A stretch of 64,000 bases of DNA from Candidatus Altimarinota bacterium (GCA_039809385.1 JBDHUY010000006.1:32001-96000), one strand, 5' to 3'. Positions 1,267-45,512 are shown, numbered from the stretch's first letter. Numbers and translations: made by a program. The notes: a model not told the origin generated them from the sequence alone.

Positions 1267-1301
1267 TATACTTCATACTTGATACCTTATACTTTATACT
1301 T
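1267..1301 (+). repeat. 5 x 7-nt array before sufB
   Basis: tatactt catactt gatacct tatactt tatactt. Confidence 0.85.
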
Positions 1302-1309
1302 GCTCCCCC

Positions 1310-2707
1310 ATGCAGACCCCCGTCATCACCCGCGAACTCTTCGAGACCGCGAACCAATCCGACTACGCCGCCAAAATTAAAAGAGGCCTTTCCGAAGAGC
1401 TTATTCGACGTATTTCATCCGAAAAGAAAGAACCCGAGTGGATGCTGGAAAAACGGCTCAAGGGCTTAAAACTGTTCAACGAAATGCCCATGCCGGCGTT
1501 TGGCCCCGACCTGAGCGCCCTGCATTTTGACGAAATAATCTACTATGCAGTAGCCAGCGACGTGGACGATGCCAAAACCTGGGACGACGTACCGTCCGAT
1601 ATTAAAAATACCTTTGAACGACTCGGTATTCCGCAAGCCGAGCGCGAAATGCTGGCCGGAGTCGGCGCACAGTATGAGTCGAAAGTGGTCTATCATAAAC
1701 TGAAAGAAGAGTGGGAAAAACAGGGTGTCATCTTCGAAGATATGGACGTGGCTTTGCAAAAATACCCCGACCTGGTCAAAAAATATTTTATGACCAACTG
1801 CGTGCCGGCTCACGATCACAAGTTTGCTGCGCTGCACGCCGCGGTTTGGAGTGGCGGAACCTTTCTCTTTGTTCCCAAAGGCGTGTCAATCGATACGCCG
1901 CTGCAAGCCTATTTTCGTATGAATGCCAAAAACATGGGGCAGTTCGAACATACGCTGATTATCATCGAAGAAGGTGCCCAGGCTCACTATATCGAAGGCT
2001 GCTCGGCCCCCAAATACGGCTCATCCTCGCTGCATGCCGGTTGTGTGGAAGTGTATGTGGAAAAGAACGCGCGCTTTCGCTACAGCTCGGTCGAGAACTG
2101 GAGCAAAGATACCTATAATCTCAATACCAAACGCGCCATGGTCAAAGAAAACGCGGTCATGGAATGGGTCGGCGGTAATCTGGGCAGCGGCGTGACCATG
2201 CTGTATCCCTGCAGTTACCTGCTGGGAGAAGGCGGGCGGGCTGACCATCTCGGCGTCGCATTTGCCGGCCCGGGGCAGGAACAAGATACCGGCGCAAAAG
2301 TCATCCACGTAGCTAAAAATACCAGCTCCAAGATTATGATGAAATCCCTCAGCGGCGGGGGTGGAAGATCCGTATACCGCGGATTATTACATGTGTTACC
2401 AAAAGCTTCTAATTGCTCGTCGTCCGTCACCTGCGACGCACTGATCCTGGACGGTGGGTCGGCATCGGATACGTTTCCGGATATCCGCATCGAAAATAAC
2501 AGTGTGACGATCAGCCACGAAGCCTCTGTCGGGAAAATAGGGGAAGAAGAAATTTTTTACCTGACCAGCCGCGGCGTTTCGCCCGAAGAAGCCAAAGCCA
2601 TGATCGTGAACGGATTTATCGAACCGATCGTCAAATCGTTACCGCTGGAATATGCGGTAGAACTGAACCGTTTGATCGAGATGGAAATGGAAGGAGCGGT
2701 GGGGTAA
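1310..2707 (+). CDS. sufB: Fe-S cluster assembly protein SufB
   Basis: GLSEELIRRIS..KKEPEWML, AGVGAQYES, GQFEHTLII, YIEGCSAP, PLEYAVELNRLIEMEMEGAVG. Confidence 0.97.
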   Translation: MQTPVITRELFETANQSDYAAKIKRGLSEELIRRISSEKKEPEWMLEKRLKGLKLFNEMPMPAFGPDLSALHFDEIIYYAVASDVDDAKTWDDVPSDIKNTFERLGIPQAEREMLAGVGAQYESKVVYHKLKEEWEKQGVIFEDMDVALQKYPDLVKKYFMTNCVPAHDHKFAALHAAVWSGGTFLFVPKGVSIDTPLQAYFRMNAKNMGQFEHTLIIIEEGAQAHYIEGCSAPKYGSSSLHAGCVEVYVEKNARFRYSSVENWSKDTYNLNTKRAMVKENAVMEWVGGNLGSGVTMLYPCSYLLGEGGRADHLGVAFAGPGQEQDTGAKVIHVAKNTSSKIMMKSLSGGGGRSVYRGLLHVLPKASNCSSSVTCDALILDGGSASDTFPDIRIENNSVTISHEASVGKIGEEEIFYLTSRGVSPEEAKAMIVNGFIEPIVKSLPLEYAVELNRLIEMEMEGAVG

Positions 2708-2709
2708 CC

Positions 2710-2744
2710 AGTTAGGAGTCAGAAGAACAGAGTTTGGAGTTATA
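2710..2744 (+). repeat. 5 x 7-nt purine-rich array after the sufB stop
   Basis: agttagg agtcaga agaacag agtttgg agttata. Confidence 0.65.
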
Positions 2745-2839
2745 AATTTAAATTTCAAGGCTTTATTCGTCTACTCCAAAAATGTAACCTTTCGGTACAT
2801 ACCGAGATACAAAAGTATATTACTTTTTATGTACTGTAT

Positions 2840-4090
2840 ATGTATACGCACTTACGTTTCAGACTTGCGTTCCTGTGCTTAGTGTTGTTAACTGGATGCA
2901 ACGTTCAAAATCCTTCTCGAATTGCCAACCAGAACGGCACCGCAGGACCAAACACGAACCAGCATGTGACCTGGAAAACGGCTGAAGCAGAAAAGTACGG
3001 TCTTTCGCTCAGTATTCCGGGAAATTGGGATTTTCAGGCACGAGAAGGAAATACCAGTACCGCAGAATCGTTCCTGGTATCTATTCCTGAAAATCGCAAT
3101 GGAAATATTTCGCCCAAAGCTACGATGATTCTTATATTCAAACCTCGTCTCAGAGCAGATAACGACCAAGCGAAACAGAGAAATTACACACTTACGGAAT
3201 ATCTGGAAAAATCACTCGTCGCCACGCGGGGAGAACTGGCCCCAGCGGACGACAAAATGATCAACGGCCTTCATCTTACCGCCGCAGTCGAAACCGACCC
3301 GGACGGCAACAGCCTGATTCGAACATACTATGCCGAGCTACCAGAGTATTTTTTAGAAATCGCTTACCCGAAAAATCATTCCGAAAAAGAAACACTGGAA
3401 AAGATAATCGATAGTATCCGGGTAAACCGGGAAAATACGTCGCATAAAACCTCCGAGAATAAAAACCGTAATACCGATACCGTTGCCGCAACCCCCGAAA
3501 CCGGATTTAGTTTTGAACCTTGCGGGAATCCGCAAAAATATGCCAAAGCATCCTGGTATCCGGATCTGGAAAAAGGGATTGAAAAACTGCCGCTCTATAA
3601 CGATTACGACCGGGATGGCGAGGGAAAAACTCTCAAAAACGACCGAAATCTGACGATGCAGGATATTGCCGAATTGTGTTACGATACCGAAAACCACTTG
3701 GCCATCATTCTGATACCCGCCCGTATCTACGGTGGCGACGGATTCCGTTTATTACAATTCGATACAGTCGATAAAAATCTAAAACAAGCCACCCGGGAAG
3801 ATATTCACGGCGGGAAAAACACACCATATTACAAAAAAACCTGCGAGACAGCGATCAAAGCCGGAGAAAAAAATTGTCCTGAAACATTCGCCTGGTTTGA
3901 TGTACCGGATACCCTCGGCGTCATGGAACAAAACCGCTTCTATCCAACCGCACAAGGCGGAGACGGGGGATGCTTCGCCGAGTCAAGTTTTGTGTATGAC
4001 ATAGCTGAGAACCATCTATCGATCTCGGAACAGTGTAATCAGTGCGGAGAAGACAAAGCAACCCGGCAGTGCAGCACATACGACAACTGA
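2840..4090 (+). CDS. Putative lipoprotein (possible PsbP-like N-terminal domain, Cys-containing C-terminus)
   Basis: Hydrophobic signal with lipobox LTGC; WKT....YGLSLSIPGNW segment; 416-aa ORF. Confidence 0.7.
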   Translation: MYTHLRFRLAFLCLVLLTGCNVQNPSRIANQNGTAGPNTNQHVTWKTAEAEKYGLSLSIPGNWDFQAREGNTSTAESFLVSIPENRNGNISPKATMILIFKPRLRADNDQAKQRNYTLTEYLEKSLVATRGELAPADDKMINGLHLTAAVETDPDGNSLIRTYYAELPEYFLEIAYPKNHSEKETLEKIIDSIRVNRENTSHKTSENKNRNTDTVAATPETGFSFEPCGNPQKYAKASWYPDLEKGIEKLPLYNDYDRDGEGKTLKNDRNLTMQDIAELCYDTENHLAIILIPARIYGGDGFRLLQFDTVDKNLKQATREDIHGGKNTPYYKKTCETAIKAGEKNCPETFAWFDVPDTLGVMEQNRFYPTAQGGDGGCFAESSFVYDIAENHLSISEQCNQCGEDKATRQCSTYDN

Positions 4091-4188
4091 TATTGTCAAA
4101 CAGGATTAATAAATCTACAATCTATTAGAATCAGAAACATCCGTATTAGAATATTGGATGCGACAATTATAATTGTCACTCTATATAT

Positions 4189-4761
4189 ATGCCAGATTTG
4201 AATCGTTCGATTCTAGGAGAAGAAGAAAAATTGCTATTTTCAGGTATAAACAGCCCGCCGCAAGTAACACGAATACTGGCTCCGGGGATAGCAATGCTTA
4301 TCCTGACAGTTCATCTGTTAGCGATACAATCTGTATACGGACAGAAAAATCCGGAGGTACCGGTTGTAGAATCATCACAGCATGTACGGCATAAAGAAAA
4401 TACAAAAAAAAGAGAAGCAGAATCACTGGAGAAACGTATTAAAGAAGGTGGTTATCGATTTACCGCCGAGGCCAAAGATATAGCCATCTATCATGAAATA
4501 CAGATCCTGGAGAACGACCGGCATCAAGTGATTCTTCTGGTATCATATGAGACCGGACAATCGCTCAAGGAGATTCGGACCGGACGAACAGAATCAAACC
4601 AGGAAGAAGACACGACGTATGTCTATTTTCAGGACAAAGGCGAGAATTTTGTCCTACTGATTCCGCACGATGGCAACACATACCAGCTAATCAGAGCAAA
4701 AAACAAGCGATCCACAGTGATTTCCAAAGGATATATTACTGAAATCGACGGGGCAAAATGA
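4189..4761 (+). CDS. Hypothetical protein with one hydrophobic segment
   Basis: 190-aa ORF filling the gap; no recognised motif. Confidence 0.6.
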   Translation: MPDLNRSILGEEEKLLFSGINSPPQVTRILAPGIAMLILTVHLLAIQSVYGQKNPEVPVVESSQHVRHKENTKKREAESLEKRIKEGGYRFTAEAKDIAIYHEIQILENDRHQVILLVSYETGQSLKEIRTGRTESNQEEDTTYVYFQDKGENFVLLIPHDGNTYQLIRAKNKRSTVISKGYITEIDGAK

Positions 4762-4894
4762 GAAGACCCATTTTGGATATCTATTGTAATTCAGGAAAAT
4801 ACCAACAACAATTCATTCGCATTTTCCCTTCAGTTTGATAGAATACATGCTATAATTGGCCGAGCGATTTTTACTTTATTTCAATCAATTCGTT

Positions 4895-5704
4895 ATGGAT
4901 ATTGTCGTAGAAACACTCAAAGGATTAGATTTGTCGGACAAAGAGATCGACGTATATCTGGCTATTTTGGAGCTGGGCAGCGTGCCGGCTTCGGTGATCG
5001 GAAAACGTACCGGGATCGTGCGCAGTACCACTCAATACACCTGCCAGCAGCTTACGCAAAAGGGATTGCTCAGAAGTATTACACGCGGGAATACGTTTCT
5101 CTATAGCGCCGAGTCGCCCGAAAAATTGCTCTATCTCCTGGATCAGCGCAAAAAAGACCTGGAACTCCAGGAAGAAAACGTCCAGCGCATCATCGGCGAA
5201 CTGAAGAAACGCATGAACCCCAAAATCTTGATGCCACGGGTACAATTCATCGAAGGCGAAGACAATATGATCAGCCTGTACCGCGAAATGCTGGATCAAA
5301 AAGAACCGATCTATAACGCTTTTCTCAAACAAGAGGAGATTGCCGAAAAATTCGGAAGATTCATGGACCGGCAATTCATACCTCAGCGGATCCAGCGCGG
5401 CGTCAAAGCATTCGTGTTGTTGAACGATACATCGGACGGAGCTCATGAGGTCGTTGAGACAGACAAACAGAGTAAGCGTGTTACTATGTTAGTTCCTACA
5501 AAGAACTATCCATTTGAAGCAGACGTCAACCTCTATGGGAACAAAGTTGCTTTTTACTCCTACCGAAAAAACGATCTGACCGGAGTAATTATCGAGAACC
5601 AGTACATCCGCGCCTCGATGTTTTCGATGTTCAAGATGGCTTGGGACTATGCCCGAATGCTTCCTATGAACAAGAAATACAAAGACATCGAACTCCCCGG
5701 CTAA
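4895..5704 (+). CDS. TrmB-family transcriptional regulator
   Basis: LSDKEIDVYLAILELG HTH, FIEG, YGNKVAFYS...GVIIEN...FKMAW; start moved to ATG 4895. Confidence 0.88.
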   Translation: MDIVVETLKGLDLSDKEIDVYLAILELGSVPASVIGKRTGIVRSTTQYTCQQLTQKGLLRSITRGNTFLYSAESPEKLLYLLDQRKKDLELQEENVQRIIGELKKRMNPKILMPRVQFIEGEDNMISLYREMLDQKEPIYNAFLKQEEIAEKFGRFMDRQFIPQRIQRGVKAFVLLNDTSDGAHEVVETDKQSKRVTMLVPTKNYPFEADVNLYGNKVAFYSYRKNDLTGVIIENQYIRASMFSMFKMAWDYARMLPMNKKYKDIELPG

Positions 5705-5842
5705 AAGAAAGATCGGAACTACAACCAGTTCGTGGTTTGTAGCTCCTTCGTAAAAGAGGGGGGAGAGTCTATTTATTTTTAAGGCCACGCGGAAAGGCAA
5801 ACCGAGGCTTTTTCTCATCAGTTGTTCCATTTTTAAAAATTC

Positions 5843-6835
5843 ATGTCCACTCTCCTGTTAGAAACAATGACCAAACATACCTCTCTGTCGCTCTCCAAAC
5901 GCCAGCGTTCTTTTTTGGCCCTGTTCGAGCCGGAAATTTTGGAAAGAAGCAGCTCGTCAGACATACGTTTAAACAATGCGCAACAAGAAGAAGGCCTGAT
6001 ACTCATTCAACCGGATCAAAAGATGCCGCATTATACCCTTACTATTACGCAAAATATCGTGGTATCCGACACAATCGAAATACACATGAAACCGGGTATA
6101 TCGCTCGACATTATTGTAGAGAATAACGTCTCGGTAACGATACGCGAAATTCGTCATCGCACAAAGCCTAGTACCGAAAACGTGGTTACCGTTTCGAGCG
6201 TCAGCATCAGGATAGGCGAAAACAGTCAGGTTCAATACATCTACCAGGCAGAAAAGCTTCTACAAAACGATATACAACTGCGCCAGGCTCGCCTCGGAAA
6301 ATCTTCAAGTTGCACCTGGCACCTGCATTACCGACAAAACGACAATATTTTTGCCCATACCCATACCGTATTGGAAGATCGCGCTTCCGTTACTCTGCTG
6401 GGAACTTATCAGCAAAACGAAGGCGAGCGGATACTGCTCGATTACGAAGTCGTACACGAACGTCCGGATACCTCGTCGAATATTCTGGTACACGGCGTAG
6501 GCAGCGGAAAATCACGTTCCGAGTTTGTCGGAAAAATCCATATTAGCGCCGCAGCGGTGGGCAGTGACGCGCATCTGGACGAACATTGTCTCCTGTTTTC
6601 GGAACAGGCAAAACACGACTCCATGCCGATTCTGGAAATCAATACGAATGAAGTAAAAGCGACGCACAGCGCTTCGATCACCCAGATCGACGAGAACTAT
6701 CTTTTTTACCTGGCATCGCGCGGTATCGACGAAGCAAGCGGTAAAGAATTGATCAAGACCAGCTTTCTGGAAAGCATCCTCGGTCGTATGCCGGGAACGC
6801 GGAGTCCTTCGTACAAAGTACCTAGTACAGAGTAG
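5843..6835 (+). CDS. sufD: SufD-family Fe-S assembly protein
   Basis: C-terminal PILEINTNEVKATHSASI...LFYLASRGI; directly upstream of sufS. Confidence 0.88.
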   Translation: MSTLLLETMTKHTSLSLSKRQRSFLALFEPEILERSSSSDIRLNNAQQEEGLILIQPDQKMPHYTLTITQNIVVSDTIEIHMKPGISLDIIVENNVSVTIREIRHRTKPSTENVVTVSSVSIRIGENSQVQYIYQAEKLLQNDIQLRQARLGKSSSCTWHLHYRQNDNIFAHTHTVLEDRASVTLLGTYQQNEGERILLDYEVVHERPDTSSNILVHGVGSGKSRSEFVGKIHISAAAVGSDAHLDEHCLLFSEQAKHDSMPILEINTNEVKATHSASITQIDENYLFYLASRGIDEASGKELIKTSFLESILGRMPGTRSPSYKVPSTE

Positions 6836-6927
6836 AGACCGAAATTTATAAAAATTGAAGGAAATTTATAGAAATTTATTGTATAGAATCAGATTTTGCT
6901 GTCAGCTGCTTGCTGTAGGCTGTCAGC
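6804..6927 (+). repeat. Cluster of short-period arrays at the sufD-sufS junction
   Basis: gtacaaa gtaccta gtacaga gtagaga (6811-6838, contains the sufD stop); 10-nt period gaaatttata units (6841-6878); gctgtca gctgctt gctgtag gctgtca (6898-6925). Confidence 0.75.
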
Positions 6928-6976
6928 CCGTTACTACCGCTCCGTTCTCCCCTCTCCTAACTCCATTCTTGTCCTC

Positions 6977-8191
6977 ATGTTCGACCCTGCCAACATCCGC
7001 TCCGATTTTCCTCTGCTGCAACAAACCGTAAACGGTTATCCCATAATCTATCTGGACAATGCCGCAACCAGCCAAAAACCAAGCATAGTGCTGGAAAGTA
7101 TGGAAACCTATTATCGGGAATACAATGCCAACGTTCACCGCGGCCTCTATACGATGGCTGAAAAAGCTACTCTGGCATACGAAAAAGCCCGGGAAAAAGT
7201 AGCGCATTTTATCGGAGCGGAACAAGACGAAGTTCTATTCGAAAGAAGCGCCACAGGAGCGATCAACCATATTGCCGATCTATTAGTACGTAATCGGTTA
7301 AAAGCCGGAGATGCTATTCTACTGACTCTTTCGGAACATCACAGCAACTTGGTTCCGTGGCAGATCATGGCACAACGCTACGGTTTTGAACTCAAATTTA
7401 TTCCTCTGAATGAGGAAGGAAAGCTGATAATAGACAATCTGGATGAAATGCTAGAGGAAGTAAAAGCAATTGCAATACAGCACGTATCGAATGTGACAGG
7501 AGTAATCCATCCGGTTAAAGAGATTATCGAAAAAGCCCGCGCCAGAGGAATTATCACGTTGATCGATGCCTGCCAGTCGATTCCTCACGTACCAATAGAC
7601 GTCAAAGCGCTCGACTGCGATTTTTTGGTATTTGCCGGTCATAAGGTCTACGGTCCGACCGGGATCGGCGTGTGGTATGGCAAAAAAGAGCTATTGGAAA
7701 GTTTTGAACCCGTCCGCGGCGGCGGCGATATGATTCTGGAAGTCTTCGAACATCATTCCACGTGGAACGAGGTCCCTGCCAAGTTCGAGGCCGGGACTCC
7801 TGCCATTGCCGAAGCCATCGGACTGGGAGCGGCGATTGATTATATTGAGAACCTCCAACTTGCCTCAATTCTCCCGCACGAACAAGAACTGACATCTTAT
7901 ACGATCTCTCGACTGCAGGAGATCCCCGGAGTACGAATACTGGGACCTGCTACGAACAAGAACCGCCTCGGAGCAATTGCCTTCGTTATGGAAGGAATAC
8001 ACCCCCACGATATCGCCGCTTATGTCGATCGCTACGGAATAGCCATCCGTGCCGGACATCACTGCGCGCAACTGCTGCATAAACATTTCCGGATTCCGGC
8101 CTCGGCTCGCATCAGTCTGGGCATGTATAACACCCGCGAGGATATAGATCGGGCGATCAGTGCCCTTCAGGAAGTACGTGCGAAATTCTAA
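6977..8191 (+). CDS. sufS: Cysteine desulfurase SufS
   Basis: YLDNAATSQKP, EHHSNLVPW, FAGHK (PLP lysine), RAGHHCA (group II); start ATG 6977. Confidence 0.97.
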   Translation: MFDPANIRSDFPLLQQTVNGYPIIYLDNAATSQKPSIVLESMETYYREYNANVHRGLYTMAEKATLAYEKAREKVAHFIGAEQDEVLFERSATGAINHIADLLVRNRLKAGDAILLTLSEHHSNLVPWQIMAQRYGFELKFIPLNEEGKLIIDNLDEMLEEVKAIAIQHVSNVTGVIHPVKEIIEKARARGIITLIDACQSIPHVPIDVKALDCDFLVFAGHKVYGPTGIGVWYGKKELLESFEPVRGGGDMILEVFEHHSTWNEVPAKFEAGTPAIAEAIGLGAAIDYIENLQLASILPHEQELTSYTISRLQEIPGVRILGPATNKNRLGAIAFVMEGIHPHDIAAYVDRYGIAIRAGHHCAQLLHKHFRIPASARISLGMYNTREDIDRAISALQEVRAKF

Positions 8192-8197
8192 GGCAAG

Positions 8198-8305
8198 AGT
8201 ATGAGGTATTATGTATAAAGTATGGGAGACTCCTCAATAAGGTCGTAATGAACTGCTTAATTAAGAATACTTACTACTTACTACTTCCTACATTATACTT
8301 AATAC
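8198..8305 (+). repeat. Inverted pair of 7-nt arrays with no gene inside
   Basis: agtatga ggtatta tgtataa agtatgg ... atactta ctactta ctacttc ctacatt atactta. Confidence 0.8.
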
Positions 8306-8316
8306 CCCTGTCCCTC

Positions 8317-8619
8317 ATGTCCCTTCCCCAACCCGGCATCTACCGCCATTACAAAGAAAATCTCTACCGTGTTCTGGGCACGGGACGTCACAGCGAAACC
8401 CTCGAAGAATACGTAGTCTATCAGGGACTCTACGATTCGCCCGAATTTGGTAAAAATCCGCTCTGGGTACGCCCCCTCAATTTGTTCCAGGAACAGGTAA
8501 CGGTAGATGGTCGATCGATACCTCGATTTACCTACATCGGACCCGAGAACGAGAAAGTATTGGAAGATAGAAGAGAGCGTGGAGAATCAAGAATCGAGGG
8601 AGAAGACATCGAATCTTAA
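8317..8619 (+). CDS. DUF1653 domain protein
   Basis: PGIYRHYK..LYRVLG.GRHSETLEEYVVYQ.LY...WVRPL.LF...RF; start ATG 8317. Confidence 0.9.
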   Translation: MSLPQPGIYRHYKENLYRVLGTGRHSETLEEYVVYQGLYDSPEFGKNPLWVRPLNLFQEQVTVDGRSIPRFTYIGPENEKVLEDRRERGESRIEGEDIES

Positions 8620-8675
8620 AAACCGCCACCCGTTCCTTTATAACGGATCTCTACAAATTCCCCTCTGTTTCCCCT

Positions 8676-8703
8676 TTTGACTTCGGACTTTTGACTTGTG
8701 ACT
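8676..8703 (+). repeat. 4 x 7-nt array before sufU
   Basis: tttgact tcggact tttgact tgtgact. Confidence 0.75.
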
Positions 8704-8715
8704 CATCCTCCCCGT

Positions 8716-9087
8716 ATGGACATCTATCAGGAACAAATACTCGACCTCTACAAGCACCCTCTCAATTACGGAAAACTGGAAAAAGCCCAGATTGTTCGAC
8801 ATGAGATCAATCCGACCTGCGGTGACGAAATTACCATGTACCTCTTGTTTGAAGGTGATATACTCAAACATATTACATTTGAAGGCAAAGGCTGCGCTAT
8901 CAGCCAAGCCAGCGCCAGCCTGCTCACAGAGTTTTCAACCGGAAAGTCCATAACCGAACTGGAAGGAATCGGCAAAGCAACGATCCTGGAAATGCTGGGA
9001 ATCGAGCTTGGCCCCACTCGGCTCAAGTGCGCGTTATTATCATTACAAGCATTATCGAGAGGAGTACTGGAGTACAAGAAACAATAA
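8716..9087 (+). CDS. sufU: SufU/IscU-family Fe-S scaffold
   Basis: YQEQILD, NPTCGD, GCAISQASAS, RLKCALL; start ATG 8716. Confidence 0.93.
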   Translation: MDIYQEQILDLYKHPLNYGKLEKAQIVRHEINPTCGDEITMYLLFEGDILKHITFEGKGCAISQASASLLTEFSTGKSITELEGIGKATILEMLGIELGPTRLKCALLSLQALSRGVLEYKKQ

Positions 9088-9211
9088 TTAAAGCTCTAAA
9101 ATCGACCAACACCCTTCAGTTACGGATCAAATTTCGCTATTCTTTTGACAAACCGCAAAGAGTCGTTTTTAATACGCTTAGAGATACGCTGTTTCCTTCA
9201 AAAATATTATT

Positions 9212-10243
9212 ATGCCCAATGGTACTAAATCGGCTCCGCAAGTGATTATCTACAACGGATCTTCCGAAGTGAGAACCGCGAAGCTTCAAAAAGAAGCGAC
9301 TTCTCGTATCATCAGTAATGCCTCAATGATGATGGGAGAAAAATTTGAAGGAAGCAATAATCTCTATCGACTGGACTATCATAACCGTACCCATCTAGAA
9401 TATTTAACCAGAGCGGTGAAAACGATTTTGGAAGCCTGTGGAGTCCCGGACGATAAGCAACGACTTACCCTGATCGCCTTATTTGGACACGATCTGATAT
9501 TCGATTGTAATAAGCCGGCGTCTATTCCAGGACTTATCACCTCACGACTGCGTTCTCCGAAACGAGGAGACAATGAAGAACGCAGTGCACAGTTGATTCT
9601 TGAAATGATGAGAACAGAGCAAGCAAAGTACGCCGAAGAAATCTTCTCCGAGCAGGACTATAGAGATGTTCAACAAGCCGTAGAATTAACCCGGGGACAA
9701 GTAATGCATGATACCTTTGTCCAGACACACTTGCCCGGGAATATTGTACCGCCTCATATTTTTGCGCTCCTTTTCAGCGATATCAACCGATGTCTCTTGG
9801 CAGATCAGAGCCTTCCGCATCACGAACGCGGATATCTTCTCGACGGGCAGCGACTTTTACGGGAGAATTTAGTAGATGTTACCTCATTCATTCGCAGTAA
9901 TCTGCGGGAAATAACCAAAAATCATAAACGCGTATCGGAGGCAGACATACAGAAAATGCAATCCCACCTCCACGACTTTCTGTGGTGGTTTGAAACGCAA
10001 GTAAAATACGTATTTGCCCGATTGAATTATTTTAAGGACACGGATAGCCAGATTATCGATACACCAGCCGGTGGAGAGGTCATGGAGAAGTTGATCACCC
10101 CTGAGCATGCCAGAATAGCGGAAACGGCAGCCAAAAGAAGATTGGAAAGAGCACAAAAGATTGTCGCATCGACACAAACGGTTCAAGCAAAATTTACCCA
10201 GCTGGCTCGGATGGCCGGACATGCGATTCATCCCACGGAGTAA
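9212..10243 (+). CDS. HD-superfamily-like phosphohydrolase, function unknown
   Basis: YHNRTH ... ALFGHD ... NEERSA ... SD pattern. Confidence 0.6.
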   Translation: MPNGTKSAPQVIIYNGSSEVRTAKLQKEATSRIISNASMMMGEKFEGSNNLYRLDYHNRTHLEYLTRAVKTILEACGVPDDKQRLTLIALFGHDLIFDCNKPASIPGLITSRLRSPKRGDNEERSAQLILEMMRTEQAKYAEEIFSEQDYRDVQQAVELTRGQVMHDTFVQTHLPGNIVPPHIFALLFSDINRCLLADQSLPHHERGYLLDGQRLLRENLVDVTSFIRSNLREITKNHKRVSEADIQKMQSHLHDFLWWFETQVKYVFARLNYFKDTDSQIIDTPAGGEVMEKLITPEHARIAETAAKRRLERAQKIVASTQTVQAKFTQLARMAGHAIHPTE

Positions 10244-10249
10244 AGCTGC

Positions 10250-11617
10250 TTATTCCTCCTGCTTTCCGGTCTTTTTCATCATCTCCTCATAGCGCTCCAG
10301 CAATTTCATCCGCTCATCGAAATGCTGTTTCGGATCGACCTGATGTTTTTTCTCATACGCTTTCTCATACTTTTCCAGTAACTCGATCGTGTTGACCGCT
10401 CCCTGATATTCCTTGGTCTCGGACGTCCGTTCGTTCACAATCAGACGGAGCTTCTTATGATGCTCGGTTTTATTGAGTAGATGACTCAAAAAAACATAGC
10501 CGACCGCAATCATAGGCACTGTAATAAACGTCTTTTCCTGATCAAGGGCGAAATTAAACAAACCGTGAAAAAACATCGCAAACAGAAGCCCCTGAAAGAT
10601 CTTTACCTCGTGAAACAGAAACCGGGTACGTCCTTTGAGAATGCTTTGAATGCGACCCCAGAAGAGCATACCCCACTTTTTCTTTTGGGCTTCCTGGAGC
10701 TCATAGGAAGCGAAATGAGCCACGCCGTAGTAGTAACCAAAAATGCCAGAGAAGACCAGATGGGCTAGTGTTGAAAGCAAAGACCGAAAGACAAACGGTA
10801 CCAGTAGAACTCCTACCTGGTGCGTATAGACACCTTTCTCTTGATCAAGTAGGCAGACGTTTGTCGCGATTTCCTGCGGAGTGCACGGAGCCAGCCAGAT
10901 CTTGTCCACGAAATAGAGAATATTCTCCAAAAAGGCAAACCCGAGCGCTACAATGATACTAAATTCAATGGCGCTGCTGATCGAATAAATCGCCTGATCG
11001 TCCGTAAACCGCACGACCAGATGCTTACTGTACTCCTCCAGAAAACCGACCATCACCGACGTCCAGAGAGATCCATAGATTAATTTGGCACTGAGAGAAT
11101 CTCCTAAAACAGGATGCAGTACGACATAGCCTACGACGATCAGTCCGGCAGTGAGCAGCCCGCAGGCAATAAAAATAATCGGCTCTTCGATCGAACGTTT
11201 GGTAACATTGCGCCAGGCATCTCGGATTTTTGTTCCAAACAGAATGTCTGCCACAAACACGATCACCGCGGCCGAAATATAGATCACCAAACTGATGGCG
11301 GTCGTGACGGCGAAAAAGATCGCAATTTTTTCGAGCGATGGATTGGCGCTCAGTGTCTGGATAAAGCGATAAATATTCAGATCCGGAATTTTTATGCCCC
11401 ACAAATCAAAGGAAAAATTGATCGTATGCTGCCAGGCAAACATCGGCAACACCGAGAGCGTGCCGGCCAAAAAAGAGACCAGAACCGTTTTGCGTTTTTC
11501 GGGCGATTTTTTATAAAACACAAACCCCCAGGCTGCTGCCGGCAGCAGCGCCATCAAAAAACCGATCACATACTGCATGACTTGGGTAGCTATTTCGGGA
11601 GAAATTCCGTTCGGCAT
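10250..11617 (-). CDS. PrsW-family intramembrane glutamic protease
   Basis: GFLEEYSK, ALGFAFLENILY, HLVFSGIFGYYYG, HGLFNF; multiple TM segments; start uncertain. Confidence 0.88.
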   Translation of the reverse strand: MPNGISPEIATQVMQYVIGFLMALLPAAAWGFVFYKKSPEKRKTVLVSFLAGTLSVLPMFAWQHTINFSFDLWGIKIPDLNIYRFIQTLSANPSLEKIAIFFAVTTAISLVIYISAAVIVFVADILFGTKIRDAWRNVTKRSIEEPIIFIACGLLTAGLIVVGYVVLHPVLGDSLSAKLIYGSLWTSVMVGFLEEYSKHLVVRFTDDQAIYSISSAIEFSIIVALGFAFLENILYFVDKIWLAPCTPQEIATNVCLLDQEKGVYTHQVGVLLVPFVFRSLLSTLAHLVFSGIFGYYYGVAHFASYELQEAQKKKWGMLFWGRIQSILKGRTRFLFHEVKIFQGLLFAMFFHGLFNFALDQEKTFITVPMIAVGYVFLSHLLNKTEHHKKLRLIVNERTSETKEYQGAVNTIELLEKYEKAYEKKHQVDPKQHFDERMKLLERYEEMMKKTGKQEE

Positions 11618-11748
11618 AGAAAGAACAAAAAAACTAAGAAGAATGAGAAATATTCTTAGCAGTATACCATACCGGAGCATCAAGATACAATGACAACTCG
11701 ATGAAACAAAGAGACTCCAAGATTTTGCGTTTATTGAGGATGATAGCC

Positions 11749-13428: not shown

Positions 13429-13449
13429 AAAAATAATTAGGTAATGAAC

Positions 13450-13479
13450 CGTAGAGACGCAATGCATTGCGTCTCTACG
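13450..13479. repeat. Perfect 30-bp palindrome, GTAG-type REP-like
   Basis: cgtagagacgcaatgcattgcgtctctacg. Confidence 0.8.
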
Positions 13480-13530
13480 CGTGGCATGTCCTGGGGGAGA
13501 TATTCTAATTTATTCTTCAACGCTCGCAAT

Positions 13531-15243: not shown

Positions 15244-15398
15244 TCACGAAGAGTATACCAATCACACAAACACATGACAGAAAATGAGACAATAGCAATA
15301 TAATGTTATCATTCATTTTACTCTTCATAAAGCTTGAAACAGCCATCGAATATTTGTTAAAATATCTGTAGACGGGCATCGACAACACCGCTTGCACG

Positions 15399-15514
15399 AA
15401 ATATCAAAATCCAAATTTCAAATGACAAAATAATCACAACTATCAAAACCGCAATATGGACAATCCTTCGTTTTGGTATTTGGGCTTTGACATTCTTTTG
15501 AGATTTGAACTTTT
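15399..15514. repeat. A-rich/T-rich 7-nt-period inverted arms (gene-free hairpin)
   Basis: aaatatcaaaatccaaatttcaaatgacaaaa ... ttttggtatttgggctttgacattcttttgagatttgaactttt. Confidence 0.7.
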
Positions 15515-15520
15515 AATCCT

Positions 15521-16279
15521 ATGCTTCACGATGACCTTCACGAACTGGGGCTGGCCGACGAAGAGATCAAAGTCTATTTGAGCGTACTTGAACTGGGCGG
15601 CGGATTTGTGTCGAGCATTGCGCGCAAAGCCGGGGTACACCGGGTGACCTGCTACAATACGCTCGGCAATCTGGAAAAAAAAAGCGTGATACGGAGTACC
15701 ATGCAAAAAAATGTACGGTTCTACTCGGCAGAACCGCCACAAGTATTGCTGAACCAGATCGAGGAAAAATACCACCGGGCACAAAAGCTCCTGCCTGAAC
15801 TGGAAGCGCTCTATCGTGCTGCGGCGTTTACGCCGCGGATCCAGTTTTTCGAAGATCGTAAAAATATCATCCCGCTGTTCGAACAGATGACCCAGGCCGG
15901 TTCCGAGATTCTGGGATATACGAATTTGGCTCCTTTAAGCAAAATTTTCGGCGATACGCTCAATCAATTCGGAGAAAAATTGATTGTTCAAAAAAGGAAG
16001 TGCCGCTTACTCTGCCCGTACGATGTGGCCAATACCGAACTGGTGGAAAAGTATTTTTCCCTGGCAGTAAACAGAAATCACCTGGAAGTGCTGTGCGTAA
16101 ATCCGGAACAGTTTCCGTTCAAAAACGGGGTCTTCTTCTATGACGATAAAATGGCGATTATTTCATACGACAAAGACGAACTACTCGGTGTCATTATTCA
16201 AAGCTCGGTCAATACCCAGACCCAGAAAGCCATGTTCGATCTGGCGTGGCTCGGCGCGACGAGTTTTATTGTACGGTAG
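15521..16279 (+). CDS. TrmB-family transcriptional regulator
   Basis: LGLADEEIKVYLSVLELG, RVTCYNTL..L, YDDKMAIISY...GVIIQS...FDLAW. Confidence 0.88.
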   Translation: MLHDDLHELGLADEEIKVYLSVLELGGGFVSSIARKAGVHRVTCYNTLGNLEKKSVIRSTMQKNVRFYSAEPPQVLLNQIEEKYHRAQKLLPELEALYRAAAFTPRIQFFEDRKNIIPLFEQMTQAGSEILGYTNLAPLSKIFGDTLNQFGEKLIVQKRKCRLLCPYDVANTELVEKYFSLAVNRNHLEVLCVNPEQFPFKNGVFFYDDKMAIISYDKDELLGVIIQSSVNTQTQKAMFDLAWLGATSFIVR

Positions 16280-16290
16280 CTTTTCGGGTG

Positions 16291-17613: not shown

Positions 17614-17754
17614 GAGACAAAGTTCGTAATAGGATAAAACTAAAAACAGAGATATCTTAAAATATCGAGATTTAAATATCAAATATCAAACACACAAGTA
17701 CGGAAATAAAGCAAAGAAGATGCTACGCCAAAAATAAAAAAGTGATAAATCATT

Positions 17755-17784
17755 TTGACATTTATACATTCTTAAATATAAAAT
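17755..17784 (+). promoter_or_regulatory. Sigma70-type promoter
   Basis: TTGACA at 17755-60 with TATAAA (16-nt spacer) or TAAAAT (18-nt spacer). Confidence 0.6.
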
Positions 17785-17889
17785 ACGTTTCCTATGTCGC
17801 ATGACGAGACTTTTTTCTTATATTGTCACTTTTAAGAAAATGAGCTCCGTCTCGAAATAGGAAGATCTTTGAACAAAGGGGAAATTAAA

Positions 17890-18432: not shown

Positions 18433-18455
18433 ACCTTCCCCCTTCTTCGAAGAAT

Positions 18456-18488
18456 AAAAGAGCTGGTATACCTGTACCAGCTCTTTTT
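18456..18488 (+). terminator. Rho-independent terminator
   Basis: aaaagagctggta-tacctg-taccagctcttttt. Confidence 0.8.
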
Positions 18489-18671: not shown

Positions 18672-19427
18672 ATGTCCGGACACAGCAAATGGGCCACCAC
18701 CAAACACCACAAAGCCATCGTCGACGCGAAACGCGGCAAATCGTTTAGCCGTCATTCCAAAAACATCATCGTCGCCGCGCGCTTGGGCGGCGGCGACCCG
18801 GCCATGAACAACGCGCTCGCCCTCGCTATCGAACGTGCTAAAGCCGACAACATGCCAAACGCCAATATCGACCGCGCCATCAAAAGCGGAACCGGCGAAC
18901 TGAAAGACGGGGCCGAAATCAGCGAAGTCATGTACGAAGGCTACGGTCCGGGCGGCGTAGCCGTGCTAATCCGAGTTTTGACCGACAACAAAAACCGGGC
19001 CGTCGCCAACGTCCGGCATACCCTGGAAAGCAGCGGCGGATCCCTCGGGACCAGCGGCACCGTCGCCTGGATGTTCAAACGCAAAGGCACTGTCACCATT
19101 CCCATAAACGGAAAAGATCGAGATTCGCTCACCCTCGAGTTGATCGATCTGGGTGCCGACGACGTCCAGGATCACGGAGATGCCTTACTCCTTATCACGG
19201 AAGCGACGAAACTTCCCCAACTGCAGGGGACGTTGAAAGAAAAGAAAATAGAATTTGCGAATCCTGCCGTGTCCTACATCGCCGACAATCTCGTTCCCGT
19301 AAACGACGAAGAAGTAGCCAGAAAGGTTCTTAAAATGATGGAAAAACTCGAAGAAGACGAAGACATCGACGAAGTATTCAGTAATTTCGATATGGAGGAG
19401 GGAGTGATGGAGAAAGTAATGGGGTAG
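18672..19427 (+). CDS. yebC: YebC/PmpR-family protein
   Basis: MSGHSKW, YEGYGPGGVA, TDNKNR, VFSN. Confidence 0.96.
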   Translation: MSGHSKWATTKHHKAIVDAKRGKSFSRHSKNIIVAARLGGGDPAMNNALALAIERAKADNMPNANIDRAIKSGTGELKDGAEISEVMYEGYGPGGVAVLIRVLTDNKNRAVANVRHTLESSGGSLGTSGTVAWMFKRKGTVTIPINGKDRDSLTLELIDLGADDVQDHGDALLLITEATKLPQLQGTLKEKKIEFANPAVSYIADNLVPVNDEEVARKVLKMMEKLEEDEDIDEVFSNFDMEEGVMEKVMG

Positions 19428-19457
19428 CGGTCAGCGGCTAGCGATGAGCGGTTAGCA
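19423..19457 (+). repeat. 5 x 7-nt array, left arm around the four-helix-bundle gene
   Basis: ggtagcg gtcagcg gctagcg atgagcg gttagca; contains the yebC TAG. Confidence 0.85.
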
Positions 19458-19498
19458 ATACAAGGAACAGGATACGTAATTTTTTATGAGAAGTTATC

Positions 19499-19864
19499 AT
19501 GATAAAACTTCCTTTCACAAACCTCTCTATCTGGCAGAAAGGGATGCAATTGGCACATGATATTTATCAAATCGCTAAGAAGTTTCCCAAGGAAGAACTA
19601 TTTGGTATTACTTCACAAATGAGAAGATCATCATTATCGATCCCCAGTAATATTGCAGAAGGAAGTCAACGATCAACCGATAAAGACTTTGCCCATTTTA
19701 TTTCAATGGCAAGGGGATCATTAGCAGAACTTCAGACGCAAAGCATATTCTCGTATGAAGAGAACTATATTTCTGAATCTGAACACTACAGCATTCAGGA
19801 CAAGATTATCGAACTAAGCAAAATGCTACGTTCATTTTACAAAAAGCTAACCGCCGACCGCTAA
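19499..19864 (+). CDS. Four helix bundle protein (23S rRNA intervening-sequence protein / Avd-like family)
   Basis: L.IWQK, FPKEELFGITSQMRRSS.SIPSNIAEG, F...ARGS..E..TQ. Confidence 0.93.
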   Translation: MIKLPFTNLSIWQKGMQLAHDIYQIAKKFPKEELFGITSQMRRSSLSIPSNIAEGSQRSTDKDFAHFISMARGSLAELQTQSIFSYEENYISESEHYSIQDKIIELSKMLRSFYKKLTADR

Positions 19865-19879
19865 CCGCTGGTCGCTTGT
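19845..19879 (+). repeat. 5 x 7-nt array, right arm (complement of 19423-19457)
   Basis: agctaac cgccgac cgctaac cgctggt cgcttgt; contains the gene's TAA. Confidence 0.85.
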
Positions 19880-32006: not shown

Positions 32007-32056
32007 CTTCATATCGATTTCCCAAGGGAGAGAAACACATCACTCAGTAAAATATC

Positions 32057-32091
32057 TCATCATTCATCCTTTATCATTCATCCTTTATCAT
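32057..32091 (+). repeat. 5 x 7-nt array before rpmI
   Basis: tcatcat tcatcct ttatcat tcatcct ttatcat. Confidence 0.85.
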
Positions 32092-32094
32092 TTC

Positions 32095-34681: not shown

Positions 34682-34688
34682 AAGAGAA

Positions 34689-34838
34689 AGTATGTAGTAT
34701 AAGGTATTAGGTATAACGTATGGGACAAGGAGGAGCCAGTTGAGAGTGTGAAGAGAGAGAAGAAGAAAGAAACAAGAAAACAGTTAAAATTTGTTCTGTA
34801 TCAAATCCTAGATTCTATATTCTAAATTCTAGCTTCTG
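34689..34838 (-). repeat. Two 5 x 7-nt arrays between miaB and the NYN gene
   Basis: Plus strand: agtatgt agtataa ggtatta ggtataa cgtatgg (34689-723) and aatccta gattcta tattcta aattcta gcttctg (34804-838). Confidence 0.8.
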
Positions 34839-34857
34839 CCATGATTCGTACTTCAAG

Positions 34858-36285: not shown

Positions 36286-36519
36286 AGGAACATGAACCGA
36301 TACCAATATACGAATGTATACTAATACTACGGATTAAATACAAAACCCCAAGTCAAAATTATAGTCTACAGCCAGAAAGGTACAAAATAGTATTATTTCT
36401 CGATTCCGATGGTCAGGCATTTGCCCGGTATATTTGACTATCTTCGTTTTCAAGTATGCCATCTGAACTTTAGAGGTGAGTATAGTATCCTTTTACCAAA
36501 AATCACTCTATCAGGCACT

Positions 36520-43339: not shown

Positions 43340-43346
43340 TTTCTCC

Positions 43347-44405
43347 ATGCAACGCTATCTGTCAACCAGAAGAGCAAAGATTCAACGCGCCATCCAGTAT
43401 TTTCTCGGAAAAGAAAGACAACGATACGTGTCAGTAAATCAATGGAGCAACGATGTATTCGACCGTCTCCTTGATTTTTGCCAGAAAGGCAAAATGCTAC
43501 GTGGCATTATGGTCGTTTTTGCCTATGAAGCCTGCGGGGGCAAGAATATGAGAATAGCTTACCAACTAGCTGCAGTTATGGAATTCCTCCATGCCACTCT
43601 CCTGATTCACGACGATATCATGGATCGCGACATACTGCGCCGCGGAACATACTCGATTCAAGGACAATACAACCGCTACGCTACACAAAAAGGCTACCAG
43701 GACGCCGAACATTTCGGACATAGTATGGCAATCAACGTAGGAGACATTGGATTTTTTTTGGCGCTGAAGCTACTTCGGCAAACGATCAATGGGCACAAAC
43801 ACGAAAAAAACATGACAGAATTAGTCTATCAAGAACTTATTTCCGTGGGTCTGGCCCAGATGGAAGACATGGCTCTGGGTTTTGAGCAAGAAATCCCCGA
43901 TCAGGGCCGGGTAAGTCAAATGTACTACCATAAAACAGCTCGTTATAGCTTCATACTGCCTCTGCTGATCGGCACAATCCTTGCAGGTGGATCGCGCGTA
44001 TTGCAACAACAATTTACAACAATGGGCGAATCACTGGGAATTTTATACCAGATCAAAGACGACGAATTGGGGTTGTTTGGCAATGCGGCAGAGGTGGGCA
44101 AAACCTCAGGGCTCGATATCATCGAAGGGAAAAAGACGATGGCCCTTTTGGCCCTATTTCAGGCATGCAACTTTACGGAACGGAAAAAACTGAAAACCAT
44201 TCTGGGCATCCGGCAGACGAATACCGCCATGGTGCACTGGGTCATACGCTTAATGGAAAAATATCAGATCTCGGACGAACTGCATGCAAAAGAGGAGATA
44301 ATAGGAGAAAAAGTGCGAAAGATTATAAAGCGCCTCAAAGTCAAAGCAGAGTACAAAGACACGCTCAATGACTTTTTGGACTATAATCTCACGCGAACCC
44401 GTTAA
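43347..44405 (+). CDS. crtE: Polyprenyl (GGPP) synthase
   Basis: GKMLR, LIHDDIMD....RRG, KTARYS, YQIKDD.LG.FG, D..EGKKT. Confidence 0.88.
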   Translation: MQRYLSTRRAKIQRAIQYFLGKERQRYVSVNQWSNDVFDRLLDFCQKGKMLRGIMVVFAYEACGGKNMRIAYQLAAVMEFLHATLLIHDDIMDRDILRRGTYSIQGQYNRYATQKGYQDAEHFGHSMAINVGDIGFFLALKLLRQTINGHKHEKNMTELVYQELISVGLAQMEDMALGFEQEIPDQGRVSQMYYHKTARYSFILPLLIGTILAGGSRVLQQQFTTMGESLGILYQIKDDELGLFGNAAEVGKTSGLDIIEGKKTMALLALFQACNFTERKKLKTILGIRQTNTAMVHWVIRLMEKYQISDELHAKEEIIGEKVRKIIKRLKVKAEYKDTLNDFLDYNLTRTR

Positions 44406-44410
44406 CCTCT

Positions 44411-45262
44411 ATGGATCTACAGGCATTGCTGAAGTCATCCCGGCCGCGTTTCTGGCTCTATCTGGCTGGACCGTACGCGCTTGGGTATGCGGCCGGAGTA
44501 ACAGACATCTATGCGCTGGGAAACTGGCATTTTTTGATCCATCTGATCTATTTTCTCGTGCCCGCCAATATCCTCCTATATGGCATTAACGATCTGTTTG
44601 ACCGGGAGACAGATCGTACGAATCGAAAAAAAGATAAAAAGGAACATCGCTTAAAGCCAACGGAAACGCGCAATCTCATACGAATCGTATTAGTCGTAGG
44701 GATCTTAAGTTTCATACTATTGAGCGCTTCGAAGAGTCTAACCGAGTTTCTATTATGGCTGTTTTTTTTGGGACTCTCGGTATTTTACAGCACCCCGCCA
44801 CTGCGTTTCAAGGCTCGTCCGGTGCTTGATTTTGTCAGCAATATTCTCTACATCGTCCCTGGCATATTGGCTTATACCCAGGTCACCGGGAAAATAGCTC
44901 CCGCCGAAATCTGGATCGCCGGGGCAGCCTGGACCGGCGCAATGCATCTGTACTCGGCGATTCCCGATATCGAGAGTGACAAAAAAGCCAAGATCTCTAC
45001 TACGGCAACTCGGTTAGGTCATTCATTATCGCTGTTGCTGTGCGTCCTGCTTTGGACAGTCAGCCTTCTTATCGCTCTTACCAAACAAGAGTTATGGCCC
45101 TGGAGCTTGATGGGCATTCTTTACCCCTTAATTCCGCTGGTATTGATCTTTCAAAAAAAAGAGATGGTGGAAAAGGTCTACTGGTATTTCCCGCTGCTCA
45201 ACGGGATCATGGGTTTTGTGCTTTTTTGGCTGTTGGTTGGGCAGAGTGTGGCAGCTTATTAG
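44411..45262 (+). CDS. UbiA-family prenyltransferase, lycopene elongase (LyeJ/CrtEb)-like
   Basis: SRPRFW.YLAGP, P.N..LYGIND.FD.ETD..N.KK, YSTPPLRFK.RP.LD, AMHL.SAIPDI..D. Confidence 0.82.
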   Translation: MDLQALLKSSRPRFWLYLAGPYALGYAAGVTDIYALGNWHFLIHLIYFLVPANILLYGINDLFDRETDRTNRKKDKKEHRLKPTETRNLIRIVLVVGILSFILLSASKSLTEFLLWLFFLGLSVFYSTPPLRFKARPVLDFVSNILYIVPGILAYTQVTGKIAPAEIWIAGAAWTGAMHLYSAIPDIESDKKAKISTTATRLGHSLSLLLCVLLWTVSLLIALTKQELWPWSLMGILYPLIPLVLIFQKKEMVEKVYWYFPLLNGIMGFVLFWLLVGQSVAAY

Positions 45263-45512
45263 ACAAGATAGACGAGAATAATTGGGCTGTGTGCGGTTTT
45301 ACAATATTTCTTATGTACGATTAAATTTCACGAACATTCCAAATCCTGAACCCCCTAGCCCCCTTATCAGGGGGAACGGAAAAAGTTCTTTCTTCAAATT
45401 ACCATACATTTGTGTATTTGTGCCCTTTAGACTCGTTTGACTATTTCGACTTTTGTACCTGTCCTAATTTTGAATTTTGCACTTTTCACTTTGCATTTAC
45501 TGACTACTCCTC

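Follow-up and report, generated by a model that had tools for sequence, protein, structure and literature searches.

The window analysed here comprises 64,000 nucleotides of contig C6 (G000:C6:32001-96000; JBDHUY010000006.1:32001-96000) of a Candidatus Altimarinota assembly (GCA_039809385.1) of 1.87 Mb in 26 contigs, with 46% G+C and 95% completeness. The closest relatives of its SufB are found on contigs of metagenome-assembled genomes (MAGs) named Candidatus Peribacteria or Peregrinibacteria (best identity 76%), and the organism is therefore a Peribacteria-like bacterium of the candidate phyla radiation (CPR). The window contains a suf operon with foreign genes inside, serS, infC-rplT, miaB, and a 23S-5S rRNA pair. 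Short arrays of imperfect 7-nt units (heptamers), either purine-rich (R) or pyrimidine-rich (Y), lie at many gene boundaries, and 13 of them had been pointed out in a sequence-only reading of the window. These heptamer arrays are probably the repeat-built arms of stem-loop elements of the kind known from rRNA as intervening sequences (IVSs), with a gene of the four-helix-bundle family PF05635 (23S rRNA IVS protein, S23p, Avd-like) sometimes residing in the loop.

One intact cassette lies at 19422-19876. Its left arm (19422..19456) is in the purine form and has five GGTnAGC units, and its right arm (19846..19876) is in the pyrimidine form with GCTnACC units. The arms, 31 nt long, are 81% complementary, and the best downstream duplex of the left arm reaches -55.1 kcal/mol. 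The cargo between the arms is a PF05635 gene on the plus strand (19499..19864; E 8e-40), and the right arm overlaps the 3' end of this ORF call. The encoded protein matches the Xanthomonas protein in PDB 2gsc_A (E 1.5e-21), an entry with 5 chains. Another element of this build interrupts the 23S rRNA gene on the minus strand (54535..54712). This gene is 3219 nt long, compared with 2925 positions in the large-subunit rRNA model, and the insertion follows model position 583, which may be the helix-25 IVS site. It is composed of a purine-rich AAATTC-type arm, a loop and a pyrimidine-rich GAATTT-type arm, contains no ORF, and folds with -55.8 kcal/mol (z -8.36), with 0 of 200 shuffles folding as well. 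The insertion is a classical ORF-less IVS with the same build as the cassettes, and its unit family is shared with two cargo-bearing cassettes in the genome (C9:95012 and C6:2226). The other ~340 arrays of the genome lie outside rRNA.

The sequence at all 13 stretches is as the sequence-only reading described it (13/13). Under a strict test, which demands at least 4 invariant columns over 4 consecutive 7-nt units, 10 of the 13 hold as arrays, and those at 2710-2744, about 17650-17690 and about 36296-36333 are weak or irregular. The strict scan added arrays at 6937-6969, 15399-15432 and 19422-19456. Upstream of sufB, whose ATG is at 1310, lie a solo arm of five TATACTT-type units with an ATAC core (pyrimidine form, 1264..1304) and, after it, a C-rich box. 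The weak purine-rich array AGTnnnn (2710..2744) sits directly past the sufB stop. A purine-form array with a GTAC/GTAG core (6807..6838) contains the sufD stop codon. Upstream of sufS, a pyrimidine-form array with a GCTG core (6895..6927) is followed by one with a CTCC core (6937..6969), and this GCTG-then-CTCC order is a common one. Directly past the sufS stop there is a purine-form array with a GTAT core (8196..8226), and a pyrimidine-form array of the same family with a TAC/ATAC core (8266..8306) is separated by a C-rich box from the start codon of a DUF1653 gene (ATG at 8317). A TTTGACT-type pyrimidine-form array (8673..8706) stands before sufU. Further downstream, a purine-form array of the CAAA/TTTG family occupies 15399..15432, and the irregular array at the serS start (17650..17690) has a clean 2.4-copy heptamer only at 17674-17690. 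A TCATCAT/TCATCCT pyrimidine-form array between infC and the next ATG (32055..32094) is a perfect 14-nt double unit. The GTAT-core array at 34687..34724 is in the pyrimidine form in the sense of a downstream minus-strand NYN-domain gene, and it shares its core with the array at 8198, in line with the near-identical families that had been noticed for these two. The TTCTA-core array at 34802..34840 is in the purine form in the sense of the minus-strand miaB, past its stop. The array status of an irregular stretch at the miaB start (36296..36333) was not confirmed, and a TTTTGCA-type pyrimidine-form array (45465..45498) precedes a glycosyltransferase gene.

The 7-nt arrays are a real and strong feature of the whole genome. 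The invariant-column scan detected 345 arrays of 4-6 imperfect heptamers at lag 7, compared with 2 in a Markov shuffle, 7 at lag 8 and 14 at lag 6. Of the 345 arrays, 295 are intergenic, i.e., located in the 16% of the genome outside crude gene calls. A lag-match scan, requiring at least 75% matches across 4 units, yielded 208 arrays (153 intergenic) versus 3 in the shuffle, with 4 at lag 8 and 2 at lag 9. The lag-7 signal thus exceeds shuffled controls genome-wide by either scan. Tandem Repeats Finder reported 272 rows of period 7 genome-wide (40 in a third-order Markov shuffle), 97 of period 14 (4 shuffled), and 13 of period 21 (1 shuffled). The codon-usage score of array-adjacent genes is higher (6.0 vs 5.2 per 100 nt; Mann-Whitney p 7e-9), which fits the suggestion that arrays favour core genes. 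HIP1-type cyanobacterial palindromes show no enrichment in the genome (38 GCGATCGC). Long perfect heptamer arrays of 18-19 units (GACTTTG, CTGATTG, AGTCAAA) were also observed at C11:17355-17485, C8:31055-31196 and C4:127552-127683. The ends of contigs C10, C14, C19 and C22 consist of AGTCAAA or 14-nt double-unit arrays, so the assembly breaks at such arrays.

The unit is a contiguous 4-nt core plus approximately 3 variable bases, because the invariant columns are adjacent in 142 of the 255 arrays having exactly four (20% expected by chance). On average, columns of the core are conserved at 0.95 and those of the variable part at 0.62. A total of 45 core types were found, with at least 5 main families. 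Counting both orientations, ATAC/GTAT (63), TTTG/CAAA (58), CTCC/GGAG (39) and GCTG/CAGC (at least 25) dominate, followed by ATTT and ATTCA types. Exact ATAC cores at 7-nt spacing form 121 runs of two (96 in the shuffle), 13 of three, 16 of four, 31 of five and 2 of six, with none longer. The corresponding CTCC runs number 21, 24, 6 and 2 for three to six cores, and GCTG has 17 runs of three and 24 of four. With periods of 6 and 8 as controls, runs never exceeded two for ATAC, nor three for any core tested. Copy counting by extension of the best 4-unit window is biased toward 4 and was not used. Copy number is peaked and not geometric, since ATAC runs centre on 5 and CTCC and GCTG runs on 4, and none goes beyond 6. 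The conservation of period and copy number among differing units, first remarked in the window, extends to the genome. Identical neighbouring spacers are rarer than the spacer pool predicts, both for ATAC (7/133 vs 8.7%) and for CTCC (1/74 vs 8.3%). Neither hallmark of slippage, near-identical neighbours or a falling copy-number distribution, was seen, and the earlier judgement that simple slippage fits poorly is borne out by the peaked copy number and the dissimilar neighbours.

All 10 PF05635 loci of this genome (10/10) lie between matching inverted arrays, purine-rich on the left and pyrimidine-rich on the right, whichever strand the gene is on. One of them, at C3:44039, has arms of the GTAT/ATAC family. 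Class-wide, 49 loci were considered, 40 from 38 other genomes and 9 of the 10 from this genome, with two flanks masked. Lag-7 arrays were found on both flanks of 23 loci and on one flank of 14, while the control counts for both/one flank were 0/2 at lag 6, 3/4 at lag 8 and 2/4 at lag 9. The idea that arrays are arms of four-helix-bundle cassettes, as advanced in the sequence-only reading, hence holds for every locus of this genome, and class-wide with two bracketing arrays for 23/49 and with one for 14/49. Cassettes with arms of period 8 or 9 occur in other genomes (L163, L167, L171, L173, L175, L180), and one cassette (L166) has its pyrimidine-rich arm on the left. Period 7 and polarity are thus tendencies of cassettes, not rules. 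In samples of 200 kb from 10 genomes, a lag-7 excess was present in 7 of 8 genomes with PF05635 and 0 of 2 without.

The arms of a cassette pair specifically with each other. Duplexes of cognate arms have a mean energy of -37.1 kcal/mol and those of non-cognate arms -14.3 (sd 8.3). In 17 of 22 cassettes, the cognate arm was the best of the 22. Same-family pairs of arrays also fold well (mean z -3.26; 8 of 11 below -2). The codon usage of the PF05635 genes is atypical for the genome, as the crude codon-score caller missed most of them and left 'spacers' of 380-540 nt between the matching arms. The other cargo genes that had been envisaged between the arms, GxxExxY and DUF559 genes, were not borne out. 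There is no PDDEXK_3 match in the genome, and the three DUF559 copies are flanked by G+C-rich hairpins without heptamers. These DUF559 genes (Vsr-like endonuclease domain) are located at 655-1310 of the window, C6:31455-31775 and C3:113173-113496. The two on contig C6, one of them between sufC and sufB, have CCCCTCT..AGAGGGG-type hairpins, and the third has other G+C-rich inverted repeats. The DUF559 unit looks like a separate small selfish insert.

Each oriented array was assigned to its nearest gene boundary in order to count polarity; the count excludes 25 arrays that lie within genes, 12 that lie at the edge of a contig and 44 whose family was unassigned. In the mRNA-strand form, arrays are pyrimidine-rich at 133 of 154 gene 5' ends and purine-rich at 88 of 110 3' ends. 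The rule read from the window, purine-rich after stops and pyrimidine-rich before starts, therefore holds genome-wide (221/264). Polarity is not linked to transcription as such, which had also been supposed. The order within a gap is fixed, since R precedes Y in 37 gaps with both forms and is mixed or reversed in 3, and the R-then-Y order is also kept in 22 of 25 arrays between convergent genes, with no start codon near. Purine and pyrimidine arrays share one gap in 41 cases, against 9.5 expected (odds ratio 8.8, p 1e-18), and arrays flanking one gene are weakly linked (odds ratio 2.2). The arrays are thus organised by gap, and not by gene or transcript. Base composition alone was rejected as the source of the 3' polarity, because the 3' sides of genes are purine-neutral in array-free gaps (0.49-0.51 purine at stops).

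A C-rich box accompanies ATAC arrays on the gene-proximal side, at 14 of 25 gene 3' ends and 30 of 51 5' ends, whereas distal sides have it in 10 of 76 cases. Where the arms pair well, the partner of this box is a G-rich box by the end of the neighbouring gene, and the C-rich box is part of the end of the element. A second periodic motif of approximately 10 nt (GAAATTTATA / TAGAAATT-type) was noticed in the middle of a window gap (6841-6879), between the purine and pyrimidine arrays, and it recurs in other gap centres (C2:116668, C17:31468, C18:13966, C1:127442). Genome-wide, 35 lag-10 arrays (28 intergenic) were counted versus 10 in shuffled sequence. This mid-gap motif may be promoter-related or a regulator site. 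Scans of window positions 1-10300 for sigma-70 promoters (19 vs 15.9) and intrinsic terminators (14 vs 12.9) both remained at chance level.

The arrays turn over between congeneric genomes. Four ATAC cores at 7-nt spacing were found in 20 of 201 genomes of the class; the same-family genome lacks them, and families scattered over the class have them in abundance. In a 400-kb sample of a genome with 60% G+C (G050), 53 lag-7 arrays were found versus 5 at lag 8, nearly all arranged as purine arm, 15-45 nt spacer and pyrimidine arm. Only one same-family genome was at hand, with a SufS identity of 49%, so orthologous junctions were compared in a congeneric pair from another family of the class (G101/G126) in place of this genome. 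The two congeneric genomes share ~74% identity over aligned stretches, mostly genes, and synteny is common to them, but the arrays are not. Of the 14 orthologous intervals in which G101 bears an array, 3 have one in G126 too, each time built of different units. Array-bearing gaps exceed their counterparts by ~60-230 nt where the counterpart has no additional gene, and at one orthologous position G101 shows an empty palindrome and G126 a PF05635 cassette. Presence, family and cargo all differ between the gaps of this pair, in agreement with the gain and loss of cassettes that had been postulated.

These observations of anatomy, cargo, arm pairing, rRNA copy and turnover are brought together if the heptamer arrays are arms of IVS-type stem-loop elements, which we consider likely. 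An intact element would consist, on either strand, of a purine-rich arm of 4-5 imperfect heptamers, a loop, and a complementary pyrimidine-rich arm, and the loop would either be short or hold a four-helix-bundle gene (S23p, Avd-like, PF05635). Such elements would occupy the short gaps of a compact genome, and one the 23S rRNA. An element of 100-200 nt would make up a whole gap, so its purine arm would abut the left gene and its pyrimidine arm the right gene, giving the apparent stop/start polarity. Gain, loss and replacement of the elements would be fast. Orphaned or mismatched arms make up most of the arrays in this genome, and many solo arrays would be scars of lost cassettes. By analogy with rRNA IVSs, paired arms would, once transcribed, anneal into a long stem for cleavage by RNase III, whose gene is present (C2:32749-33138). 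Such a cut would excise the rRNA copy and, between genes, might separate cistrons or release the cargo mRNA.

Several observations weigh against this explanation. In the window, the same-family pair 8196-8226/8266-8306 folds no better than shuffles (z -0.5 and -0.86). Pairs of different families do not fold (mean z -0.18, 20 pairs). A partner of -30 kcal/mol or better was found on the expected side for 30 of 134 purine-form arrays versus 17 on the wrong side, and for 25 of 130 pyrimidine-form arrays versus 17, in a scan over 650 nt with a high background (~-22 kcal/mol on the wrong side). Fold quality is equal on the sense and antisense strands (17 vs 16), and selection on an RNA stem is therefore not supported. 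Cargo genes number 10 and arrays 345, no recent intragenomic copies of elements were seen, and the CTCC family has no cargo-bearing counterpart in the assembly. One of the sampled genomes (G017) has 3 PF05635 genes and no lag-7 excess. Finally, solo arrays retain invariant cores and a peaked copy number, which plain decay of lost hairpins does not explain. An RNA hairpin as the general function of the arrays was rejected, since the two R..Y gaps of the window fold at shuffle level (z -0.5 and -0.09) and neither the different-family pairs nor the strand comparison indicates one.

The retention of cores in solo arrays and the ceiling of 5-6 units, taken with the description of the Xanthomonas S23p as a homopentamer in a Coxiella IVS paper (PMC4990558) and with the likeness of the family to Avd (PMC10053308), suggest that the cores are perhaps read by a protein, perhaps the cargo protein itself. 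The arrays might accordingly be binding sites of a ring-shaped or multimeric protein, likeliest the pentameric four-helix-bundle protein, with one subunit per heptamer core. Each paralogue would have its own heptamer family, and the dispersed ORF-less arrays would be targets for regulation or mobilisation. This possibility, which we regard as rather unlikely, is compatible with the hairpin-arm explanation. There are precedents in RNA, where TRAP and HutP read spaced triplets, and in DNA, where omega repressor reads heptads and ParG tetramer boxes. The contiguous 4-nt core, the copy-number peaks of 5 and 4 with a ceiling of 6, the deficit of identical neighbouring spacers and the match of the window protein to a PDB entry of 5 chains are all consistent with a ring. 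Among the arrays away from cargo genes, 26 of 331 match the arms of the genome's own cassettes exactly, compared with a mean of 8.2 and a maximum of 18 for random sets of 10 foreign arms (500 draws); at 6/7 matches or better, however, the own arms score 150, within the foreign range (mean 102, max 157). Protein identity is correlated with arm likeness over 35 cassettes (Mantel r 0.27, p 0.0005), but this correlation is confounded by shared descent, as the closest pairs belong to one genus, and proteins of 60-79% identity have quite different arms. Arms of period 8 or 9 in some cassettes, and one genome with 26 arrays per 200 kb and a single cargo gene, also argue against a ring. It is a tentative proposal that IVS proteins are sequence-reading pentameric rings on about five heptamers, each paralogue with its inverted arms being the autonomous member of a family and the scattered ORF-less arrays serving as its targets. 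If true, this would amount to a system acting in trans to shape, mark or move intergenic hairpins, and it could explain the short tandemly repeated repetitive (STRR) sequences and TAACTGA heptamers of cyanobacteria, Beggiatoaceae and Bacteroidetes.

Alternatively, the arrays could be heptanucleotide microsatellites, created by slippage, blurred by point mutation, and filtered for orientation by the base composition of leaders. Heptanucleotides are reported to be the commonest long simple repeat in most prokaryotes and slippage has been proposed for them (Mrazek 2007, as summarised in PMC4679880), and a one-heptamer difference between Coxiella strains in the IVS (PMC4990558) points the same way. 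The perfect arrays of 18-19 copies (C11:17355, C8:31055, C4:127552), the contigs ending in arrays, perfect 14-nt double units such as 32059-32092 of the window, and leaders that are G-poor and T-rich throughout the genome are as expected from this origin. Yet copy number is peaked with no fall-off, mismatches are gathered in 3 adjacent columns, neighbouring units are less alike than chance, and few cores account for most arrays. Filtering by leader composition is at odds with the purine-neutral 3' sides of array-free gaps and with the polarity kept between convergent genes. No 7-nt indel in the arrays of window positions 1-20000 is listed in contigs from 4 runs of 2 studies, although these contigs have a depth of 1-8 and drop rare variants, so a missing indel row is no proof of sameness. 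The PF05635 link and the complementary partners are also left unexplained, making the microsatellite origin very improbable.

The arrays had also been suspected to be co-opted translation signals in a genome that largely lacks Shine-Dalgarno (SD) motifs. In this case, the pyrimidine-form arrays would be unstructured S1-binding leaders that replace the SD, and the purine-form arrays by-products. The 5'-side arrays end between -30 and +15 nt of a called start in 67 of 154 cases, ATAC arrays end 0-15 nt before an ORF-opening ATG in 30 of 57, positions -25 to -1 of 1006 genes have ~10% G and 40-47% T without SD motif, and the genome encodes an S1 protein that has 4 S1 domains. A reading of this kind has been given for the TAACTGA repeats of Beggiatoaceae (PMC4679880). 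An altered anti-SD was ruled out, as the 16S rRNA (C23:16349-17848) has the usual CCUCC tail, and a cold-shock protein as reader was rejected, as no cold-shock-domain gene was found in the genome. We consider an origin as translation leaders very improbable, since the C-rich-box module is as frequent at gene 3' ends (14/25) as at 5' ends (30/51), and a 5' array is present at only 141 of 1477 genes. Moreover, orthologous starts of a congeneric genome do not retain the arrays, and the same-family genome lacks the ATAC pattern.

Additional genes split the suf operon of the window (2840-5704 and 8317-8619). They comprise a 416-aa ORF with a weak PsbP_2 match, a 190-aa ORF without family, a TrmB-like regulator and the DUF1653 gene. 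SufB matches of ~1.94-2.04 kb, compared with ~1.38 kb, were noticed in loci of other MAGs (L002, L003, L005, L006, L009, L027), suggesting an intein or other insertion in sufB of several relatives.

For decades, tandem heptamers have been seen in bacterial intergenic DNA, with no convincing account of how they arise. The 23S-rRNA-IVS-protein family is widespread and, to our knowledge, without known function. The genome described here ties the two together, with the arrays as arms of IVS-type hairpins and the gene of the IVS protein in the loop. Known already are S23p IVSs with RNase III excision and the Coxiella heptamers, PF05635 ORFs in CPR rRNA, the excess of 7-nt repeats, and the TAACTGA arrays. 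No published account of intergenic IVS-type hairpins with heptamer arms, or of a rule placing PF05635 between arms, was found in the literature searched; the Coxiella IVS paper is the nearest.

Among known systems, REP/BIME elements with their RAYT transposases are familiar as short imperfect palindromes in gaps, present in many copies, and resemble the arrays in these respects. A RAYT/REP model was rejected, because this genome has only a weak Y1 transposase match (E 1.3e-4) and there is no correlation: 95 of 201 genomes have a Y1 match, and the array-rich genomes G050, G071, G091 and G168 are not among them. The heptads of the omega repressor of pSM19035 (PMC10532202) and the tetramer boxes of ParG at parH (PMC3130281) are likewise built of 7-bp units or of 4-bp boxes plus spacers, in direct and inverted orientation, and are read by small multimeric proteins. 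They differ from the arrays in that the plasmid sites are few, have a single motif and are recognised by a ribbon-helix-helix protein. PF05635 proteins resemble Avd of diversity-generating retroelements (DGRs; PMC10053308). The cassettes are not DGRs, and retro-homing by a reverse transcriptase of the genome itself was rejected as well, as no RVT_1 match exists in this 95% complete genome.

The 7-nt long simple repeats and cyanobacterial STRR sequences are similar in period, intergenic position and patchy phylogenetic spread, and long perfect arrays occur in this genome too. In contrast to these, the arrays combine degenerate units around a fixed core with a copy number peaked at 4-5, a fixed R-then-Y order, partners of complementary sequence and a gene as cargo. 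The TAACTGA direct repeats known from marine Beggiatoaceae and from some Cyanobacteria and Bacteroidetes are also mostly intergenic and patchy, with 2-6 heptamers, and are mostly found just upstream of starts in genomes where SD sites are rare (PMC4679880). They comprise one heptamer, almost solely forward with a single inverted case, and neither S23p nor intervening sequences come up in that paper (0 occurrences). The arrays here differ in having many families and inverted pairs and in occurring also past stop codons. Instead of a single forward start-proximal heptamer, 45 core types and 110 oriented arrays at 3' ends were found.

The rRNA IVSs of Coxiella, Leptospira, Xanthomonas and Salmonella are the closest counterparts, with complementary ends, a long stem and a loop that optionally holds a PF05635 ORF. 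In the Coxiella IVS, 2-3 tandem heptamers stand ahead of the S23p ORF, and the first repeat is the site of RNase III cleavage (PMC4990558). PF05635 ORFs have been reported in rRNA insertions of CPR bacteria (PMC11270868). Here, the long stem of complementary ends is present in the 23S copy and between cognate arms, not in most solo arrays, and the optional ORF (S23p / 23S_rRNA_IVP) is in the loop at 10 loci. Unlike rRNA IVSs, nearly all copies lie between protein-coding genes, at about one per kb of intergenic DNA; both arms have 4-5 degenerate heptamers, there are many sequence families per genome, and most copies have no pairing partner. If the tie between arrays and IVS protein holds more widely, its own arms would be a concrete and testable candidate substrate for the protein, and annotators would be warned that periodic purine or pyrimidine tracts at stops and starts are not necessarily expression signals. 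'Intervening sequences' would then extend from an rRNA curiosity to a common intergenic occupant of compact CPR genomes.

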